Below are positions 1 through 5,331 of a stretch of DNA of 5,331 bases, in pieces (position 1 is the stretch's first letter; the number at the start of each line of letters is the position of its first letter). The stretch is from Candidatus Wukongarchaeum yapensis (GTDB lineage: Archaea; Asgardarchaeota; Wukongarchaeia; Wukongarchaeales; Wukongarchaeaceae). The notes under the pieces were generated by a model. The model worked only from the letters and a program-made list of their open reading frames with translations, searched no databases and was not told the origin of the DNA. The translations under genes and the position numbers were made by a program. The DNA lies in contig JAEOSI010000165.1 of the NCBI GenBank assembly GCA_016840425.1, positions 1 to 5,331 of the forward strand, written 5' to 3'.

Positions 1-899
1 ATTTCATCGATGGTTTTAATCCCCATTTGTTCCATATAGTTTGCTAAACCTTTAATTATTTCATCAAAGATTTTGAAGTTATTCATGCTCAAAGCTGACC
101 CAATTTGGAACGCTTCAGCCCCTGAAAGTATGAATTCTAAAGCGTCTTCCCATCTTGTTATTCCCCCAACACCTATTATTGGGATCTCTACCTTTTCAAA
201 GATTTCATAGATACATCTAACCGCTATTGGACGGATCGCTGGCCCGGATAAGCCTCCAAATTTATTCCCTAACACTGGTTTTTTTGCGTAAATATCTATA
301 ACCATAGCTTTAAGCGTGTTAATCGCCGTAATCGCGTCGGCTTCCGCCTTTTCTGCTGCCATAGCAATGTTTGAGATATCTGTTACATTAGGAGTAAGTT
401 TAACAAAAACAGGACGATCGACCACATCTTTTACAGCCTTAACGACCTTAGTGAGGATGGAAGGATCAGAGCCTATAACGGCGCCATATCTGCCTCCATG
501 AGGGCATGAGACATTCAACTCGTAACCGTCAGGCTTTGCTTCAGAAATCCCTGAGGCTACCTTTTGAAACTCTTCGGCATCAGATCCGAAAATGCTTACG
601 ATTAACGGAACTCCGCACCGTTTTTTATAAAGAATTAAATCCTCTTTAAACGCTTCAAACCCAGGGTTCGGTAACCCCATCGCGTTTACGAAACCTACCC
701 CTTTCCCTACCTCGACTAAAGTAGGACCAGGGTATCCTTCTTTAGGCTCCACGCCTATGGATTTTGTAACAACACCTCCAGCCCCTGCTTCAGCAACCCT
801 GACAAGAGTGGAAACAGAAACTCCCAAGATCCCAGAAGCCAACATAGAGGGATTTTTCATTCTTATTCCTGAGATTTCAACAGATAGATCTACCTGCAA
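1..899 (-). CDS. pyrD: Dihydroorotate dehydrogenase, family 1 (probably 1B catalytic subunit); 3' end truncated by the window edge
   Basis: Manual translation from TTG 899: MQVDLSVEISGIRMKNPSMLASGILG...GGVVTKSIGVEPKEGYPGP...NAMGLPNPG...YELNVSCPHGG (catalytic Cys, codon 506-504)...VFVKLTPNVTDI...AINTLKAM...GGLSGPAIRPIAVRCIYE...PIIGVGGI...AFQIGSA. About 299 codons with no stop before base 1. GGGG (908-911) lies 8 nt upstream; an alternative in-frame TTG is at 905. Confidence 0.96.
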   Translation of the reverse strand, partial: MQVDLSVEISGIRMKNPSMLASGILGVSVSTLVRVAEAGAGGVVTKSIGVEPKEGYPGPTLVEVGKGVGFVNAMGLPNPGFEAFKEDLILYKKRCGVPLIVSIFGSDAEEFQKVASGISEAKPDGYELNVSCPHGGRYGAVIGSDPSILTKVVKAVKDVVDRPVFVKLTPNVTDISNIAMAAEKAEADAITAINTLKAMVIDIYAKKPVLGNKFGGLSGPAIRPIAVRCIYEIFEKVEIPIIGVGGITRWEDALEFILSGAEAFQIGSALSMNNFKIFDEIIKGLANYMEQMGIKTIDE

Positions 900-929
900 A
901 AACAATTCCCCTTTCTTATGATGCTTAGT

Positions 930-1065
930 TTATTGGACACTTAAGAAACGTGAACTACCCTCAGATTTCGGAGAGGGTTTCCTCCCTCGCACTCTGATAC
1001 GCTAATGGGTCTCCTTTCGGAGCGGCGTACTCTGGGGAGGTTTGGGGCGTGTTCACGGCCGCCTT
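930..1065 (-). ncRNA. Putative omega-RNA (reRNA) of TnpB #1: scaffold overlapping the tnpB 3' end, guide from flanking DNA (GTTTCTTAAGTGTCCAATAA, 949-930); 5' boundary approximate
   Basis: Minus-strand hairpin CTCC-GAAA-GGAG (1022-1011, GNRA loop on this strand only); imperfect stem TCAGA..GAGGG-AGGAAA-CCCTC..TCTGA (997-961); GGCG/CGCC stem (1063-1046). The location matches known TnpB omega-RNA architecture. Boundaries are inferred. Confidence 0.6.
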
Positions 1066-2186
1066 GCTATTAAGCATGTAGCTTAAGAGCATGTTGCCTA
1101 TGTTGATGGCTCCGTTTAAGTCTCGGTTATATTCTAACCCGCAATCCTTACATCTGAAAGATCTTTTTTTGATTTCGGTGTTTAGGGTTCCGCATCTCCA
1201 ACACAGTTTGGAGGTGTAGGCTTCGTTTAAAGGTATTACTGGAACTTCTTCCCATAAGGCTTTGTAGGTTAGCATTTGTTTTATTTTGTAGGAGGGCATT
1301 GTGTGTATTTTTCGGTTGTTTTTTCTACACCTTGCTTCTCCTTTAATTCTCGACTGTCTAACGTTTTTAAGGCCACCGAAAACGATAACGGGTTCATACC
1401 CACATCTCTTAAGTATCTTAGCTCTATTCACTATTTTCCTTGTGGCTTTATGTAGGATGTCGTTTACTTTTCTACTTTCCTTGTTTGCTAAGTGTTCTTT
1501 AATCCAATTAATTGCGTGTTTTATCTTCTTTCGACCTACTCCTTTCTTTAGGTTGTTGTAATGTGCCCTAACACTCCTCACATCCCTTCCTTGAAACTGG
1601 ACATTTTTTCGCTTTTTCCCTTGATTCCATAACTCTACAGAAACGACAGGGTTTGCTTCTCCGATATCGCATACTATTATGATGGTTTTGTTAGTTATTG
1701 GTTGTGGTTTAGGGATTTCCGCCTCTTTTTGAACAGTTATATAGAGGAAAAACTCTCCGTTCTTTTTGAATAGTTTGGATTCACAGATTTCCATGTCCGG
1801 TTCTATTGGGCAGTGGGGTTTAACGGCAACCCATACTCCACCTCTTCTTCCAGCAACAGGGATTTTGGTCCAATATTCCGCTATTTTCGTGTTCCGCTTT
1901 TCCACTTTTAAAAGGTCTTTTCTGATTGATATCGGATACTCTTTGTTAGGTTTAATCTTTTTGTAAAACCGTTTAGCTTGCTGTTTGTTAGCTGAGTACA
2001 GTTTCACCTTTTCACCATGTAGGAAACGTTGAAGATTATAGTATTCTTCTTCAAGAAGTCTTTGTTTAACTTTAGTCAAATACACAATTTTTGTTTTGAT
2101 TGTCTTTTTAATTTTCAAAGGTCACAGACCTCAACATTTAATAGTTCAGCTTCTAATTTAAGCTCACCGCAAATTATTACATATAA
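950..2186 (-). mobile_element. Solo-tnpB IS200/IS605-family element (IS1341-like, no tnpA); right end at about 950, left end uncertain (about 2165-2190)
   Basis: The minus strand after tnpB reads CCCTC-TCCGAAATCT-GAGGG-TAGTTCAC, a subterminal hairpin followed by a TCAC terminus, typical of tnpB right ends. Only 122 bp separate the tnpB start from the nop5 ATG, leaving no room for tnpA. A weak hairpin AGCTT-N7-AAGCT (2148-2164) is a left-end candidate. Confidence 0.72.
961..2118 (-). CDS. tnpB: TnpB, IS200/IS605-family RNA-guided endonuclease, 385 aa, non-canonical RuvC-II
   Basis: RuvC-I IIIVCDIG (D151), RuvC-II region VIVFGGL (G248 where Glu is usual), NEAYTSKLC (E299), zinc finger CWRC...CKDC (C306/C309/C323/C326), RuvC-III NRDLNGAINI (D333). 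TTG start with GAGGT 9 nt upstream (2128-2132). Confidence 0.93.
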   Translation of the reverse strand: MKIKKTIKTKIVYLTKVKQRLLEEEYYNLQRFLHGEKVKLYSANKQQAKRFYKKIKPNKEYPISIRKDLLKVEKRNTKIAEYWTKIPVAGRRGGVWVAVKPHCPIEPDMEICESKLFKKNGEFFLYITVQKEAEIPKPQPITNKTIIIVCDIGEANPVVSVELWNQGKKRKNVQFQGRDVRSVRAHYNNLKKGVGRKKIKHAINWIKEHLANKESRKVNDILHKATRKIVNRAKILKRCGYEPVIVFGGLKNVRQSRIKGEARCRKNNRKIHTMPSYKIKQMLTYKALWEEVPVIPLNEAYTSKLCWRCGTLNTEIKKRSFRCKDCGLEYNRDLNGAINIGNMLLSYMLNSKAAVNTPQTSPEYAAPKGDPLAYQSAREETLSEI

Positions 2187-2240: not shown

Positions 2241-3500
2241 ATGAGGGACTTGATATTGGAAAAAGTGTACGTGGCAGTAAATTGTGCAGGCGTGTTTTTA
2301 CTGGATTCAAATGGTGCGATAATTGATTTAAAAGCCTTTCCAGAAGATGTTGAGGAGAGAGCTGAGATATTTTGGCAGATACAAGAAGACATTATTTCAG
2401 AGGAGATTGTAGAGTTTCTTGAAAAACATTTAAAAGAGGGAGTAAACGCGGTTTTTGAAGACAAGAAACTTGCGGAGAGAATGAGTAAAAGAATAAAAGT
2501 AAATGTTCTAGTAGAACGAGGCGCAGAACCCTTTCTCACTTTTAGATCCGCGATTCCTTGGAATCTTATTGATCAAGGAGTTGTTAATGATGCGGAGACA
2601 TACATAAAGCAGGTAAGAGAGATTAGTTTATCGCTTGGTAAGAAGGGTATTACAAAATTTGCTCGGCAGAAAGATAAGGTAGTTATTCAGGTTATAGCTA
2701 CTATTGACGATATAGATAAGACGATAAACTTTTTCGCCGGGAGACTTAGGGATTGGTATAACCTTCATTTTCCAGAAGCTAGCGATTTGTTGGAAGACCA
2801 TCATCAATTTTTCCGTTTTATTTCAGAAATAGAAAGTCGTTTATTAATATCTCGTGGATTACTTGAGGAAAAAGGTTTTGGGAAAATTGCTGAAAAAATG
2901 TTGATGGCTGCAGAAGGCTCTATGGGGGCAGAATTTTCAGAAGAAGATTTGGAACCTTTAAAAAATATGGCTAAAACCATGTTAGAATTAGCTAAAAGAA
3001 GGCAAGAGTTAGCAAAATATTTGGAAAAGATTATGAGCGAAATCACGCCAAACCTTACAGGTTTAATAGGGCCTCTTTTAGGGTCAAGGTTGATACATCT
3101 TGCAGGAGGGTTAAAAGAACTCGCCTTTCTTCCCTCTACTGTCATACAAGTTTTAGGCGCTGAAAAAGCTTTATTTCGATTCTTGAAAACGGGCACTAAA
3201 CCGCCAAAACATGGCGTAATCTTTCAACACGCATATGTACATAACGCGCCCAAATGGCAAAGAGGAAAGATTTCGCGGGTTCTTTCAGGAAAGATCGCTA
3301 TCGCTGCAAGGATAGACGCATTTACAGGCGATATAAGGTACGAAGAATTACAAAAAGACATGGAAGAACGAATAAAAGAGATCAGGAAAAAATATCCCTC
3401 TCCACCGCCTAAAAAACAAGCAAAAACAAAAAGAAAGCTAAAAGAGAAAAAGAAAGGAAAAAAGAGGGTAAAAAAAGAGGCTGGGAAAATTGTCCATTAA
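2241..3500 (+). CDS. nop5: Nop5 (Nop56/58 homolog), box C/D sRNP core protein; true start possibly TTG 2256
   Basis: N-terminal domain KVYVAVNCAGVFLLDSNG, coiled coil IDDIDKTINFFAGRLRDWYNLHFPE, Nop domain PNLTGLIGPLLGSRLIHLAGGLKELAFLPSTVIQVLGAEKALFR...PPKHGVIFQH...RGKISRVLSGKIAIAARIDAF, Lys-rich tail. GAGGG (2243-2247) lies 8 nt upstream of in-frame TTG 2256. Confidence 0.97.
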   Translation: MRDLILEKVYVAVNCAGVFLLDSNGAIIDLKAFPEDVEERAEIFWQIQEDIISEEIVEFLEKHLKEGVNAVFEDKKLAERMSKRIKVNVLVERGAEPFLTFRSAIPWNLIDQGVVNDAETYIKQVREISLSLGKKGITKFARQKDKVVIQVIATIDDIDKTINFFAGRLRDWYNLHFPEASDLLEDHHQFFRFISEIESRLLISRGLLEEKGFGKIAEKMLMAAEGSMGAEFSEEDLEPLKNMAKTMLELAKRRQELAKYLEKIMSEITPNLTGLIGPLLGSRLIHLAGGLKELAFLPSTVIQVLGAEKALFRFLKTGTKPPKHGVIFQHAYVHNAPKWQRGKISRVLSGKIAIAARIDAFTGDIRYEELQKDMEERIKEIRKKYPSPPPKKQAKTKRKLKEKKKGKKRVKKEAGKIVH

Positions 3501-4194
3501 AGTAATAAACGTTGAAGAACATGAAAAGTTCCCAAACATATTCAAAGTAAAGTTTGAAGACGGGTCAGAAAAACTTGCAACAAAAAACCTTTCACCAGGC
3601 TTTGCAGTTTATGAAGAACGCCTCATAAAATCTCAAGGAGAAGAATACCGATTATGGGACCCATACAGAAGCAAATTAGCTGCAGCCATCTTAAAAGGAG
3701 TAAAAAATGTAGCGATAAAACAAGGGGACAAAGTTCTTTATCTTGGCGCTTCGACAGGAACCACTGCAAGCCACGTCTCAGACATAGTAGGAGAGGAAGG
3801 CCTAGTATTTTGCGTGGAAATATCTCCCCATGTAATGAGAAAGCTGTTAGAAGTCTGTGAAAAAAAATATAACATGATACCCATCCTTGGAGATGCAAAA
3901 AAACCTGAGACCTACACCTTCCTAATAGGACAAATAACAAGTATTTATTGCGATGTAGCAACACCAGAACAAGCAAGACTTCTAGCAGATAACGCCGACA
4001 CCTTTCTCATCCACGGGGGGGAGGCAACTATCGCCATCAAAGCTAGGAGCATAGATGTTACAGAAAAACCAGAAAAAATCTTCGCACAAGAGATAAGCAC
4101 AATGGAAAAAAGAGGCTTAAAAATCGTCGAAAAAATTTACCTTGAACCTTTCAGCGAAGATCACGCCATGGTTATCGCAAAACACAACCGATGA
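3490..4194 (+). CDS. flpA: Fibrillarin-like rRNA/tRNA 2'-O-methyltransferase
   Basis: LATKNLSPGFAVYEERL, EYRLWDPYRSKLAAAI, SAM-binding VLYLGASTGTTASHVSD, VEISP, IPILGDA, YCDVA, IKARSIDVT, LEPFSEDHAMV. Overlaps the nop5 stop by 11 bp; TTG start with GAGG 9 nt upstream. Confidence 0.97.
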   Translation: MSIKVINVEEHEKFPNIFKVKFEDGSEKLATKNLSPGFAVYEERLIKSQGEEYRLWDPYRSKLAAAILKGVKNVAIKQGDKVLYLGASTGTTASHVSDIVGEEGLVFCVEISPHVMRKLLEVCEKKYNMIPILGDAKKPETYTFLIGQITSIYCDVATPEQARLLADNADTFLIHGGEATIAIKARSIDVTEKPEKIFAQEISTMEKRGLKIVEKIYLEPFSEDHAMVIAKHNR

Positions 4195-4281: not shown

Positions 4282-4800
4282 TTACTCTACCAGGCGCAAT
4301 TTATAGACGCATTTATCATTGCCCCAAGTTTTACATCCTATTTCTTCGCAAATCGCTTCGCCAAACCCCCGCAACCTTGCAACTTCCTGAAAAACACCGC
4401 CCACAAAAAGACAATATTGTAACCCTTTAAGATTCTCAGAAAGGTTGACATCCTTACAAAATGGACAATTTGCATCTTCGTAGTAAATAGCTTTTTCCTC
4501 GGGATCATACCATACTTTCGTCATACTACTACCGGTAAACACTTTATATGCGATGGAAAGCGTATCTTTTAACTCTTCAAACTCTCCTGCATGCTCTTTT
4601 ATCTTTTCTGCATATTCTATTAGAAGTGTTTCCGCCATCTTCCTGCCGAAAACTCTTAAAGACTCATTAATTTTCTTAACATCACCGTTGTTTAGTCCAA
4701 TAAGATGGTCATTTAAAGCGTCTACAAATGCTTGAAAAAGTTCTAAACTAATCTTATGCATCTTTAAATGAAATCCTAACCAACCTTTAACTTTAGGCAA
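4282..4800 (-). CDS. V4R-domain / Bet3 (TRAPPC3)-like protein, 172 aa
   Basis: Strong SD GAGGAGG 7 nt before TTG. V4R-type C-terminal motif YC130...EEIGC156KTWGNDKC164VY plus NC112PFC115. The N-terminal and middle blocks (KISLELF, INESLRVFGRKMAETLLIEY, AYKVFTG, VNLSENLKGLQY..VGGVF) resemble Bet3 as recalled from memory. Confidence 0.8.
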   Translation of the reverse strand: MPKVKGWLGFHLKMHKISLELFQAFVDALNDHLIGLNNGDVKKINESLRVFGRKMAETLLIEYAEKIKEHAGEFEELKDTLSIAYKVFTGSSMTKVWYDPEEKAIYYEDANCPFCKDVNLSENLKGLQYCLFVGGVFQEVARLRGFGEAICEEIGCKTWGNDKCVYKLRLVE

Positions 4801-4835
4801 AGATTTTCCTCCTCTAATATCTTATAATTTGTTAA

Positions 4836-4850
4836 AACATAAATTTTTAG
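4836..4850 (-). promoter_or_regulatory. Candidate BRE/TATA promoter of the V4R/Bet3-like gene
   Basis: Minus strand CTAAAAA-TTTATGTT (4850-4836): an A-rich BRE-like run and TATA-like box about 36-43 nt upstream of TTG 4800. Other AT-rich candidates exist nearby. Confidence 0.3.
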
Positions 4851-5164
4851 AAGACATAAGAACAAAACACTATAACTATCTTCTTTTTTAAAAATAATAA
4901 ATTTATCACTTTTTTTGCTTCCTTTTAGATAAGAGGATCTGTAGACTGTTCTTGACACAACTATACCACCAAGATCCCGCCTAGATAGCGCGATAAGAAA
5001 ATCCACCCATACTCTACACAAATTCTAACAGAACACAATGGCTAGATAATCAAAGAACTATTACCACAACACCGAAAAGACCCCCTCCCACACACCTAAT
5101 TATCCTAAAAAAACCTATAACAAGAAAAAGATATCAGTATCAATAACGTATTGGATTACTACTC

Positions 5165-5187: not shown

Positions 5188-5331
5188 CTGACATACTCTC
5201 CACCCTAAAGGGTTGGAGGTTCTACGGTTGTTGTTTTAACTTTTACAACCGATGGCTGTGCCACCAGCCAGTTATCCCTATCCCGCCAGTAGGGCTTCGG
5301 GAATATCGGGTTAGCTATGTTCGCTACACCG
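5188..5331 (-). mobile_element. Right end of a second IS200/IS605-family element
   Basis: Minus strand GAAC-CTCC-A-ACCC-TTTA-GGGT-GGAG-AGTATGTCAG: bulged subterminal hairpin (5218-5198) and a ..TGTCA(G) terminus at 5189/5188, the usual tnpB right-end pattern. Confidence 0.8.
5205..5331 (-). CDS. tnpB: C-terminal 41 codons of a second TnpB (5' part outside the window)
   Basis: Manual translation from 5330: GVANIANPIFPKPYWRDRDNWLVAQPSVVKVKTTTVEPPTL*, TAG at 5207-5205. GVANI fits the end of the RuvC-III motif D-x-N-[GA]-x-x-N-I; RDRDNWLVAQP resembles archaeal TnpB tails; a typical right end follows immediately. Confidence 0.75.
   Translation of the reverse strand, partial: GVANIANPIFPKPYWRDRDNWLVAQPSVVKVKTTTVEPPTL

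Follow-up and report, generated by a model that had tools for sequence, protein, structure and literature searches.

A gene on the minus strand of a short contig of Candidatus Wukongarchaeum yapensis encodes a Bet3/TRAPPC3-like protein of 172 amino acids (aa). Here, we analysed the entire contig (C172; hereafter the window), a stretch of 5331 bases from a 2.16-Mb metagenome-assembled genome (MAG) which consists of 277 contigs and is 92% complete. The protein is, very probably, a genuine Asgard member of the TRAPPC3-like class and a homologue of eukaryotic Bet3/TRAPPC3 within the V4R superfamily, and we regard this as the best explanation of our results. TRAPP is the Rab1 and Rab11 exchange factor central to eukaryotic vesicle traffic; its Bet3-fold and longin-fold subunits have been traced to Asgard archaea, in which proteins with a TRAPP domain count among the established eukaryotic signature proteins. 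An earlier reading of this DNA from its sequence (the original prediction) had proposed a Bet3-like protein at this position and implied that it was new. However, a Zn-binding, homodimeric Asgard TRAPPC3 from Thorarchaeota (Thor-TRAPPC3; structures 7YH3 and 7YH2) has already been crystallised and compared with both V4R proteins and eukaryotic TRAPPC3 (Tran, Akil, Senju and Robinson 2024, PMC10933270). Class, Zn site and dimer are all published in that work, and the member described here is itself confirmatory. The addition made here is modest and consists of a distinct, widespread orthogroup, a conserved partner gene for a winged helix-turn-helix (wHTH)/longin-like protein, an occasional fusion to a longin-like domain, and a locus split by an insertion sequence (IS).

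The 172-aa open reading frame (ORF) is real and conserved. It encodes a standalone protein, as originally predicted, lies on the minus strand, and begins with a TTG codon (4800-4798) placed 7 nt after a GAGGAGG sequence (4814-4808). This start is supported because the N-terminal K-G-W-L-G-F motif is kept in all close homologues, and also because approximately 60-110 upstream bases, TTG included, are conserved in the congeneric genome G002. The segment 4801..4862 is the sole upstream part which is well conserved with that genome, and the A/T-rich block within it (4849-4839) may act as a promoter. Residues 1-12 (window 4800-4765) follow a pattern, M-G-(V/L/I)-K-G-(W/R/K)-(L/I)-(A/G)-(W/F), that is kept across families in the orthologues which we call type A (discussed below). 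In the structural model these residues have low confidence (predicted local distance difference test, pLDDT, 52-68) and lie outside the predicted dimer interface; that the motif is a docking peptide or an amphipathic membrane element is a guess on our part. In the congeneric orthologues (G002, L047 6550-7167, minus strand; P0003-P0005), a repetitive K/S/G/E-rich insert (about 20-35 residues) sits directly between the start codon and the K-G-W motif, and the window protein is without it.

Sequence comparisons place the protein with TRAPPC3. Its assignment to a family rests on comparison with solved chains and profiles and on the predicted structure, because the protein misses the Pfam TRAPP model and scores 15 bits on V4R. 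When solved chains were searched with phmmer, the protein matched the entries named 'TRAPPC3 from Thorarchaeota' (7YH3, E 3e-13; 7YH2, E 3e-11) and Naegleria TRAPPC3 (6AQ3, E 2.5e-5; ORF residues 13-171 against 22-184). Two designed repeat proteins in the same list (6XR1 and 6XR2) were ignored as a low-complexity helical artefact. A family profile, built from an alignment of 17 sequences, matched Thor-TRAPPC3 with an E-value of 1e-40 (positions 13-168). Eukaryotic Bet3/TRAPPC3 proteins of Naegleria, Drosophila, yeast, mouse and human were matched at E 3e-20 to 1e-12 over positions 9-168, the N-terminal helices included (6AQ3, 3e-20; Drosophila, 6e-16; yeast Bet3, 2e-13; human and mouse, about 1e-12 to 1e-13 over positions 12-167). 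The same profile gave E 2e-5 for TRAPPC6 (positions 16-150), 8e-5 for TRAPPC5 (positions 15-150) and 0.084 for the archaeal V4R protein MJ1460, in the last case over the last 38 positions only. The colinear similarity to TRAPPC3 put forward in the original prediction is borne out by these values, which lie far from what chance would give; the correspondences between sequence blocks which it listed are visible in the alignments with Naegleria and Drosophila TRAPPC3. Its alternative outcome, a profile search in favour of generic V4R proteins only, did not occur, as TRAPPC3 is ahead by many orders of magnitude.

The Pfam searches proposed at the same time succeeded less well. V4R (PF02830) matched the 172-aa protein below threshold, with 15.1 bits (E 0.024) over residues 128-168, i.e., the last 41 only, against a gathering score of 31 bits. 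The TRAPP model (PF04051; gathering score 27 bits, which is an operational threshold of one model and not a structural criterion) gave no match to the protein at E <= 1, nor at E <= 10 in the genome scan. A match to SICA_beta was rejected as spurious. Taken alone, this Pfam result would have pointed, wrongly, to a generic V4R protein. Among the 17 family members, PF04051 is matched by 11 (E <= 0.1, best 1.7e-9) and V4R by 15 (E <= 0.1, best 1.3e-8), and the V4R matches are consistent with kinship at the level of the superfamily.

The predicted structure has the Bet3 fold. In the AlphaFold2 (AF2) model (pLDDT 90.3; predicted template-modelling score 0.85), the protein would form the two layers typical of Bet3, with a four-helix layer over a four-stranded sheet; helices are predicted at 4-12, 19-36, 41-66, 74-89 and 131-143, and strands at 95-99, 104-109, 149-155 and 164-170. 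We compared this model with known structures by Foldseek, using the template-modelling score by query (TM) and the root-mean-square deviation (rmsd). Eukaryotic Bet3/TRAPPC3 gave TM 0.80-0.87 and rmsd 1.8-2.2 Å over about 160 residues; the structures superposed were 1SZ7, 1WC8, 2J3W_D, 3CUE_E, 6AQ3 and 7U05_F, together with human TRAPPC3 and yeast Bet3 from the AlphaFold database (AFDB). Thor-TRAPPC3 followed with TM 0.75-0.80 (rmsd 2.6-3.8 Å), and TRAPPC5 (TM about 0.72-0.79) and TRAPPC6 (TM about 0.69-0.73) had higher rmsd. The V4R proteins PoxR, MopR, DmpR and XylR and methanogen V4R stood at TM of about 0.5 with rmsd above 4 Å (PoxR, MopR, DmpR and MJ1460 at 0.50-0.56 in the Protein Data Bank search). 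The structural order in AFDB Swiss-Prot was TRAPPC3, TRAPPC5, TRAPPC6 and then methanogen V4R. The structural comparison, also suggested in the original prediction, thereby gives the same answer as the profiles, with Bet3/TRAPPC3 well above V4R proteins.

A homodimer of the window protein was predicted with a score of 0.73, the best control reaching 0.01, with at least 93% contact agreement between runs and a partner pLDDT of 81. The mark used for this prediction was calibrated on known structures, being reached by 21 of the 30 proteins solved as same-chain pairs and by none of the 23 solved as single chains. The predicted interface comprises residues 14-36, 51-59 and 87-91 (helices alpha1/alpha2). 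A like homodimer, 7YH3, has been solved, so the pass of this model-based prediction may reflect likeness or recall only. If the prediction is right, the protein would dimerise via alpha1/alpha2 (residues ~14-36 and 51-59), as is the case in Thor-TRAPPC3 homodimers and Bet3 heterodimers.

The cysteines of the protein point to a Zn site of the Thor-TRAPPC3 type. There are six of them, at positions 112, 115, 130, 151, 156 and 164; all five that had been listed before are present, and C151 had been overlooked. The family alignment shows no variation at C112, C115, C130 and C164 and approximately 90% conservation at C156. Thor-TRAPPC3 (159 aa) has just four cysteines in its aligned part, residues 3-158, and the four invariant residues pair with these; its Zn was shown by anomalous scattering to be held by four Cys (PMC10933270). 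In such a site, Zn would tether the sheet to a helix. On this alignment C112, C115, C130 and C164 are the predicted Zn ligands, and the retention of a putative Zn site, as first proposed, agrees with their invariance. In Drosophila TRAPPC3 the same four positions are occupied by N, T, S and V, and Naegleria TRAPPC3 is likewise without these cysteines. Residues 1-111 of the window protein do not contain any Cys, and Ala71, which is invariant in close homologues, aligns with a candidate palmitoylated Cys of Drosophila TRAPPC3. We take that Cys to be the palmitoylation site, the human equivalent of which is presumably Cys68. By alignment, the protein thereby keeps a Cys4 Zn-type site and is without the acylation Cys, the latter also in line with the expectation that the palmitoylated Cys of Bet3 has no equivalent here. 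Both properties, the retained Zn site and the missing acylation site, have already been stated for Thor-TRAPPC3 (PMC10933270).

Relatives of the protein are widespread in Asgard archaea. A phmmer search over 1.84 billion cluster representatives yielded 18 relatives, none of them recognisably eukaryotic, and a word-indexed search yielded 5. Named relatives come from MAGs of Odinarchaeota, 'Promethearchaeota', Jordarchaeales and Freyarchaeota, and more distant ones from Bathyarchaeota; in annotations they figure as hypothetical or as 'predicted hydrocarbon binding protein'. The nearest public locus, of 70% identity, belongs to a MAG labelled Candidatus Hodarchaeota (this is G002:C79, of the same GTDB genus). 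This label of the congener, together with the Odin-, Jord- and Freyarchaeota origin of named homologues, bears out the Asgard host which the original prediction had suggested. Of 301 genomes sampled from the GTDB phylum, 239 had a match to the family profile (E <= 0.001), and matches of E 1e-40 to 1e-70 occur throughout several families (genomes matched: 73/76 in f6, 19/19 in f12, 5/5 in f7, 3/3 in f13 and 6/6 in f18).

Two orthogroups can be told apart among these proteins. Type A, which includes the window protein, has approximately 170 aa and usually starts with M-G-(V/L/I)-K-G-(W/R/K). Type B, which is the crystallised Thor type, has approximately 157 aa, is without the N-terminal motif and is a long-branch paralogue; at the loci examined it occurs only in family f6, beside a type-A copy. 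Type A, widespread among Asgard archaea, is not the orthogroup of the crystallised paralogue, and its recognition is added here. In an archaea-only tree, the window protein is sister to its G002 orthologue (support 100/99), and these two group with a protein from an Odinarchaeia MAG, a longin fusion (genome G009) and family f16 (84/81); the backbone of this tree is poorly supported and it has no bearing on the branch point of eukaryotes. In f6 genomes (L039 5351-10336, L040 5472-10459 and L041 4030-9097) the whole module is present as a tandem duplicate. The first copy consists of a gene for a 303-aa protein (which ends in a winged helix and which we read by eye as roadblock-like) followed by a type-A gene of 168 aa; the second, about 1.5 kb further on, has a 320-aa gene of the same kind, then a type-B gene of 157 aa and a gene for a 200-aa V4R protein (PF02830, E 1.2e-11).

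Type-A genes have a conserved neighbour. At 30 of 35 distinct type-A loci there is an immediately upstream gene on the same strand, mostly less than 100 bp away, whose product carries a homologous C-terminal winged helix with weak matches to Pfam HTH_47. The N-terminal part of the neighbour varies. It is longin-like in the genus of the window and in f16, and is a short Cys-containing domain in f12; in f6, f13 and f18 we read it by eye as roadblock-like, with no Pfam match. In G002 the neighbour is a longin-like/wHTH protein of 217 aa, and its orthologue in the genome of the window has 223 aa and is 71% identical. The AF2 model of this orthologue (pLDDT 64.7) has the longin order strand-strand-helix-strand-strand-strand-helix-helix, followed by the winged helix. 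A fold search with this model gave matches (E 1e-5 to 1e-3, which we treat as a lead only) to chains of the GATOR1 complex at the top, and further to COPI zeta, the VAMP7 longin domain, AP sigma, the TRAPP chains 2J3T_C and 3CUE_C, and roadblock proteins. We take the GATOR1-complex chains to be NPRL2/3, and we read the two TRAPP chains as Bet5. In protein P0009 of genome G009, a longin-like domain is fused directly to a TRAPPC3-like domain without a winged helix between them. On contig C4 of genome G040 (L043 2244-5864, plus strand), three successive genes for Ras-family GTPases (PF00071, E ~1e-40), then a longin-like/wHTH gene and then a type-A gene are co-directional; the longin-wHTH/TRAPPC3 pair is arranged in the same way in a sister genome, G057. 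A search of our literature library for papers combining Asgard archaea, longin, winged helix and TRAPP found none.

Other proteins with related domains are encoded elsewhere in the genome of the window (G000). On contig C196 (L034 321-1736, plus strand) there is a gene for a 471-aa protein in which an N-terminal domain and a central winged helix (weak HTH_47/HTH_24 matches) precede a TRAPPC3-like domain at the C-terminus (E 1.3e-17 with the family profile, positions 4-165); the two genes which are neighbours elsewhere seem to be fused here, and similar proteins of about 490 aa from other Asgard genomes are present in the ESM Atlas. Contig C127 (L001) encodes a protein of more than 408 aa (3-1226, minus strand) with a C-terminal TRAPP/V4R domain (PF04051, E 1.2e-4; V4R, E 4.7e-6), divergent from a Ras-family GTPase gene at 1440-1862 on the plus strand (PF00071, E 2.7e-35). 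A second copy of this locus, about 90% similar, lies on C269 (L002), which suggests strain heterogeneity or duplication. Contigs C116 (L037 1015-2574) and C123 (L038 1492-2973) each encode, on the minus strand, a protein of approximately 500 aa with two V4R-like domains which bear the usual cysteines (E 1e-7 and 5e-3 with the family profile), the N-terminus of which we read as thioredoxin-like by its CxxC motif.

In the genome of the window, the pair of genes appears to be split. The neighbour orthologue lies on contig C5 (850-1521) and is followed by a 415-aa TnpB gene that reaches the end of the contig (element, C5 1751-3015). Over its last 144 bases, C5 is 100% identical to window positions 5188-5331 read as the reverse complement. 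In an alignment to G002, C5 can be followed as far as the stop codon of the neighbour; 15 bases further on, the match continues in the window, from about 5066. This is explained most simply if a TnpB element of approximately 1.6 kb was inserted just after this stop codon, between the two genes. The element is present in at least 8 copies or fragments, and its 144 terminal bases also occur at an end of contig C60. Since it is multicopy, the assembly would have broken at the insertion, and since the 144-base repeat is shared with C60, the join of C5 to the window rests on synteny. The TRAPPC3-like gene retains a conserved 5' region of its own.

As to function, we consider it an even matter whether the protein and the product of the longin-like/winged-helix neighbour form a small complex in which the former is the Bet3-like subunit, as the conserved adjacency and the fusion suggest. 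That the pair serves as a platform regulating Ras/Rab-like small GTPases, in other words as a proto-TRAPP module, is a tentative and more weakly inferred step. It is rather unlikely that all elements of this scheme hold together, with an undescribed two-subunit Asgard module acting on Ras/Rab-like GTPases as a minimal ancestor of the TRAPP core (Bet3 and a longin subunit), in which the K-G-W motif would be a docking or membrane element. Any role in a TRAPP complex or as a guanine nucleotide exchange factor is suggested by genomic association only, namely by the longin-like/wHTH neighbour, the fusion and one GTPase cluster. Several observations weigh against this reading or its parts. The protein itself misses Pfam TRAPP and obtains 15 bits on V4R, and its placement closest to TRAPPC3 and not to TRAPPC5/6 depends on sequence scores which may only mirror a slower evolution of TRAPPC3, such that the kinship may be to TRAPPC3 or to a common ancestor of TRAPPC3/5/6. 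Zn binding, dimerisation and partner binding are predicted properties of the window protein, and the model of the neighbour is modest, as its pLDDT indicates. Among the lineages examined, just one has GTPase genes next to the pair. The junction of C5 and the window lies within the repeat that C60 shares; besides, in this genus about 450 bp lie between the two genes, which are here also split by the IS and need not be co-transcribed. Finally, the part of the neighbour that is conserved most is the winged helix and not the longin-like domain, which fits a transcription-factor partner equally well, and Thor-TRAPPC3-GFP showed no membrane targeting in HeLa cells, its authors favouring ligand binding (PMC10933270).

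The last two points lead to a different explanation, in which a V4R-type sensor of hydrophobic ligands and a winged-helix protein form a two-protein transcriptional regulator with no role at GTPases or membranes, the likeness to Bet3 being a matter of ancestry. This is possible, yet we would not favour it. It draws on the conservation of the winged helix at 30/35 loci with its weak HTH_47 matches, and on the next-best structural matches of our protein, which are V4R domains that bind phenolics in transcription control (XylR, DmpR, PoxR and MopR). The internal cavities of Thor-TRAPPC3, from which, along with the HeLa result, ligand binding was concluded to be likely (PMC10933270), and the IMG label of homologues, 'predicted hydrocarbon binding protein', point the same way. 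However, V4R sensors match the model far worse (TM ~0.5) than Bet3 does, and the N-terminal domain of the neighbour is longin- or roadblock-like, a fold tied to GTPase regulation. The P0009 fusion, which has no winged helix, and the Ras-family GTPase genes of the co-directional G040 cluster also speak against it; winged helices, moreover, serve as protein-interaction modules too, and chains of the GATOR1 complex head the fold matches of the neighbour. The simplest objection, that this is a generic archaeal V4R protein whose resemblance to Bet3 is the superfamily fold only and whose TRAPPC3 label is an over-interpretation, could appeal to the Pfam result, with V4R as the only match (E 0.024) and none to TRAPP, and to the ESM Atlas neighbours, among which many V4R clusters score equal to the Thor TRAPP cluster. 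We hold this to be highly improbable, as the V4R match is below threshold and confined to the last 41 residues, direct and profile searches put TRAPPC3 far above V4R with the N-terminal helices aligned, and TM is 0.80-0.87 to Bet3 compared with ~0.5 to V4R proteins. A Bet3-like protein of the TRAPPC3 class is, then, the reading which we retain.

The remaining genes of the window are listed in Table 1. The TRAPPC3-like ORF is convergent with the fibrillarin gene, and a functional tie to fibrillarin/Nop5 was rejected, as the genes are convergent and the arrangement is conserved within the genus only. The complete TnpB gene stands between pyrD and nop5, two genes that in G002 adjoin with no insertion (L047 3511-4437 and 4515-5783); it shares 26% identity with the TnpB at the window end and is unrelated to it. 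Scans of the window for tRNA and Rfam families gave nothing relevant, with one sub-threshold small-RNA match inside the TnpB end. This match, to Rfam sot0042 (window 5197-5308, minus strand; E 2e-4 and 27.7 bits, where the gathering score is 88), falls inside the 3' end of the TnpB gene and may represent a structured element-end/guide-RNA region, or chance.

Table 1. Features of the 5331-base window.
Feature	Position	Strand	Remarks
Coding sequence, 172-aa Bet3/TRAPPC3-like (TRAPP-domain, V4R-superfamily) protein	4282..4800	minus	stop codon included
5' conserved region of TRAPPC3-like gene	4801..4862	minus	Shine-Dalgarno-like GAGGAGG and TATA-like A/T-rich block 4849-4839
Intergenic stretch	4953..5066	minus	~80% identical to G002 sequence directly downstream of longin-like/wHTH stop codon; ancestral synteny is regained here beyond the IS
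Multicopy TnpB (IS200/IS605-type) element, right end	5188..5331	minus	last 41 aa of TnpB at 5331-5208, stop 5207-5205
Dihydroorotate dehydrogenase (pyrD)	3-905	minus	
TnpB/Cas12f-like transposase, 385 aa	961-2118	minus	PF07282, E 8e-22
Nop5	2241-3500	plus	
Fibrillarin	3490-4194	plus	

Among known systems, the protein stands close to Thor-TRAPPC3. Both are standalone Asgard proteins of approximately 160-170 aa which belong to the same family, share the fold and the four aligned Zn-ligand cysteines, and have the N-terminal-helix dimer interface, predicted in our case. They differ in that identity is about 25%, and the window protein has about 12 extra N-terminal residues with K-G-W-(L/I)-(G/A)-(F/W) and an additional conserved Cys156; it is of type A, whereas Thor-TRAPPC3 is of type B. 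With eukaryotic Bet3/TRAPPC3 (1SZ7, 1WC8, 3CUE chains D/E, 6AQ3), the protein shares full-length colinear homology, the fold and the predicted dimer surface. There is also an association with longin domains, since in TRAPP the longin subunits Bet5 and Trs23 are in contact with Bet3, and here the longin-like domain is encoded by a genomic neighbour. Unlike the eukaryotic proteins, to which it is 16-25% identical, it keeps the Cys4 Zn-type site and has Ala71 at the position of the palmitoylated Cys.

Prokaryotic V4R proteins (PF02830; MJ1460, 2OSO; PoxR, MopR, DmpR, XylR) have in common with it the superfamily, a cysteine-bearing C-terminal beta-alpha-beta part and a possible ligand cavity. The V4R domain of PoxR is also Zn-Cys4 (PMC10933270), and the link between V4R and Bet3 has been known since 2008 (PMC2253512). 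In contrast to V4R proteins, which our protein meets with 15 bits over its C-terminal 41 residues, its N-terminal helical dimer layer is Bet3-like and not like that of V4R sensors. A Heimdall longin-TRAPPC3 fusion, MBD3190748.1, has been mentioned (PMC10933270), and the same longin-TRAPPC3 link recurs here as a conserved gene pair and as the fusion P0009 (G009). Unlike MBD3190748.1, the window protein is standalone, and its longin-like partner has a winged helix in addition and, in this genome, is split off by an insertion element. The comparative result thereby supplies a definite candidate partner, along with candidate GTPases from one lineage, with which the idea of a proto-TRAPP before eukaryotes can be tested.

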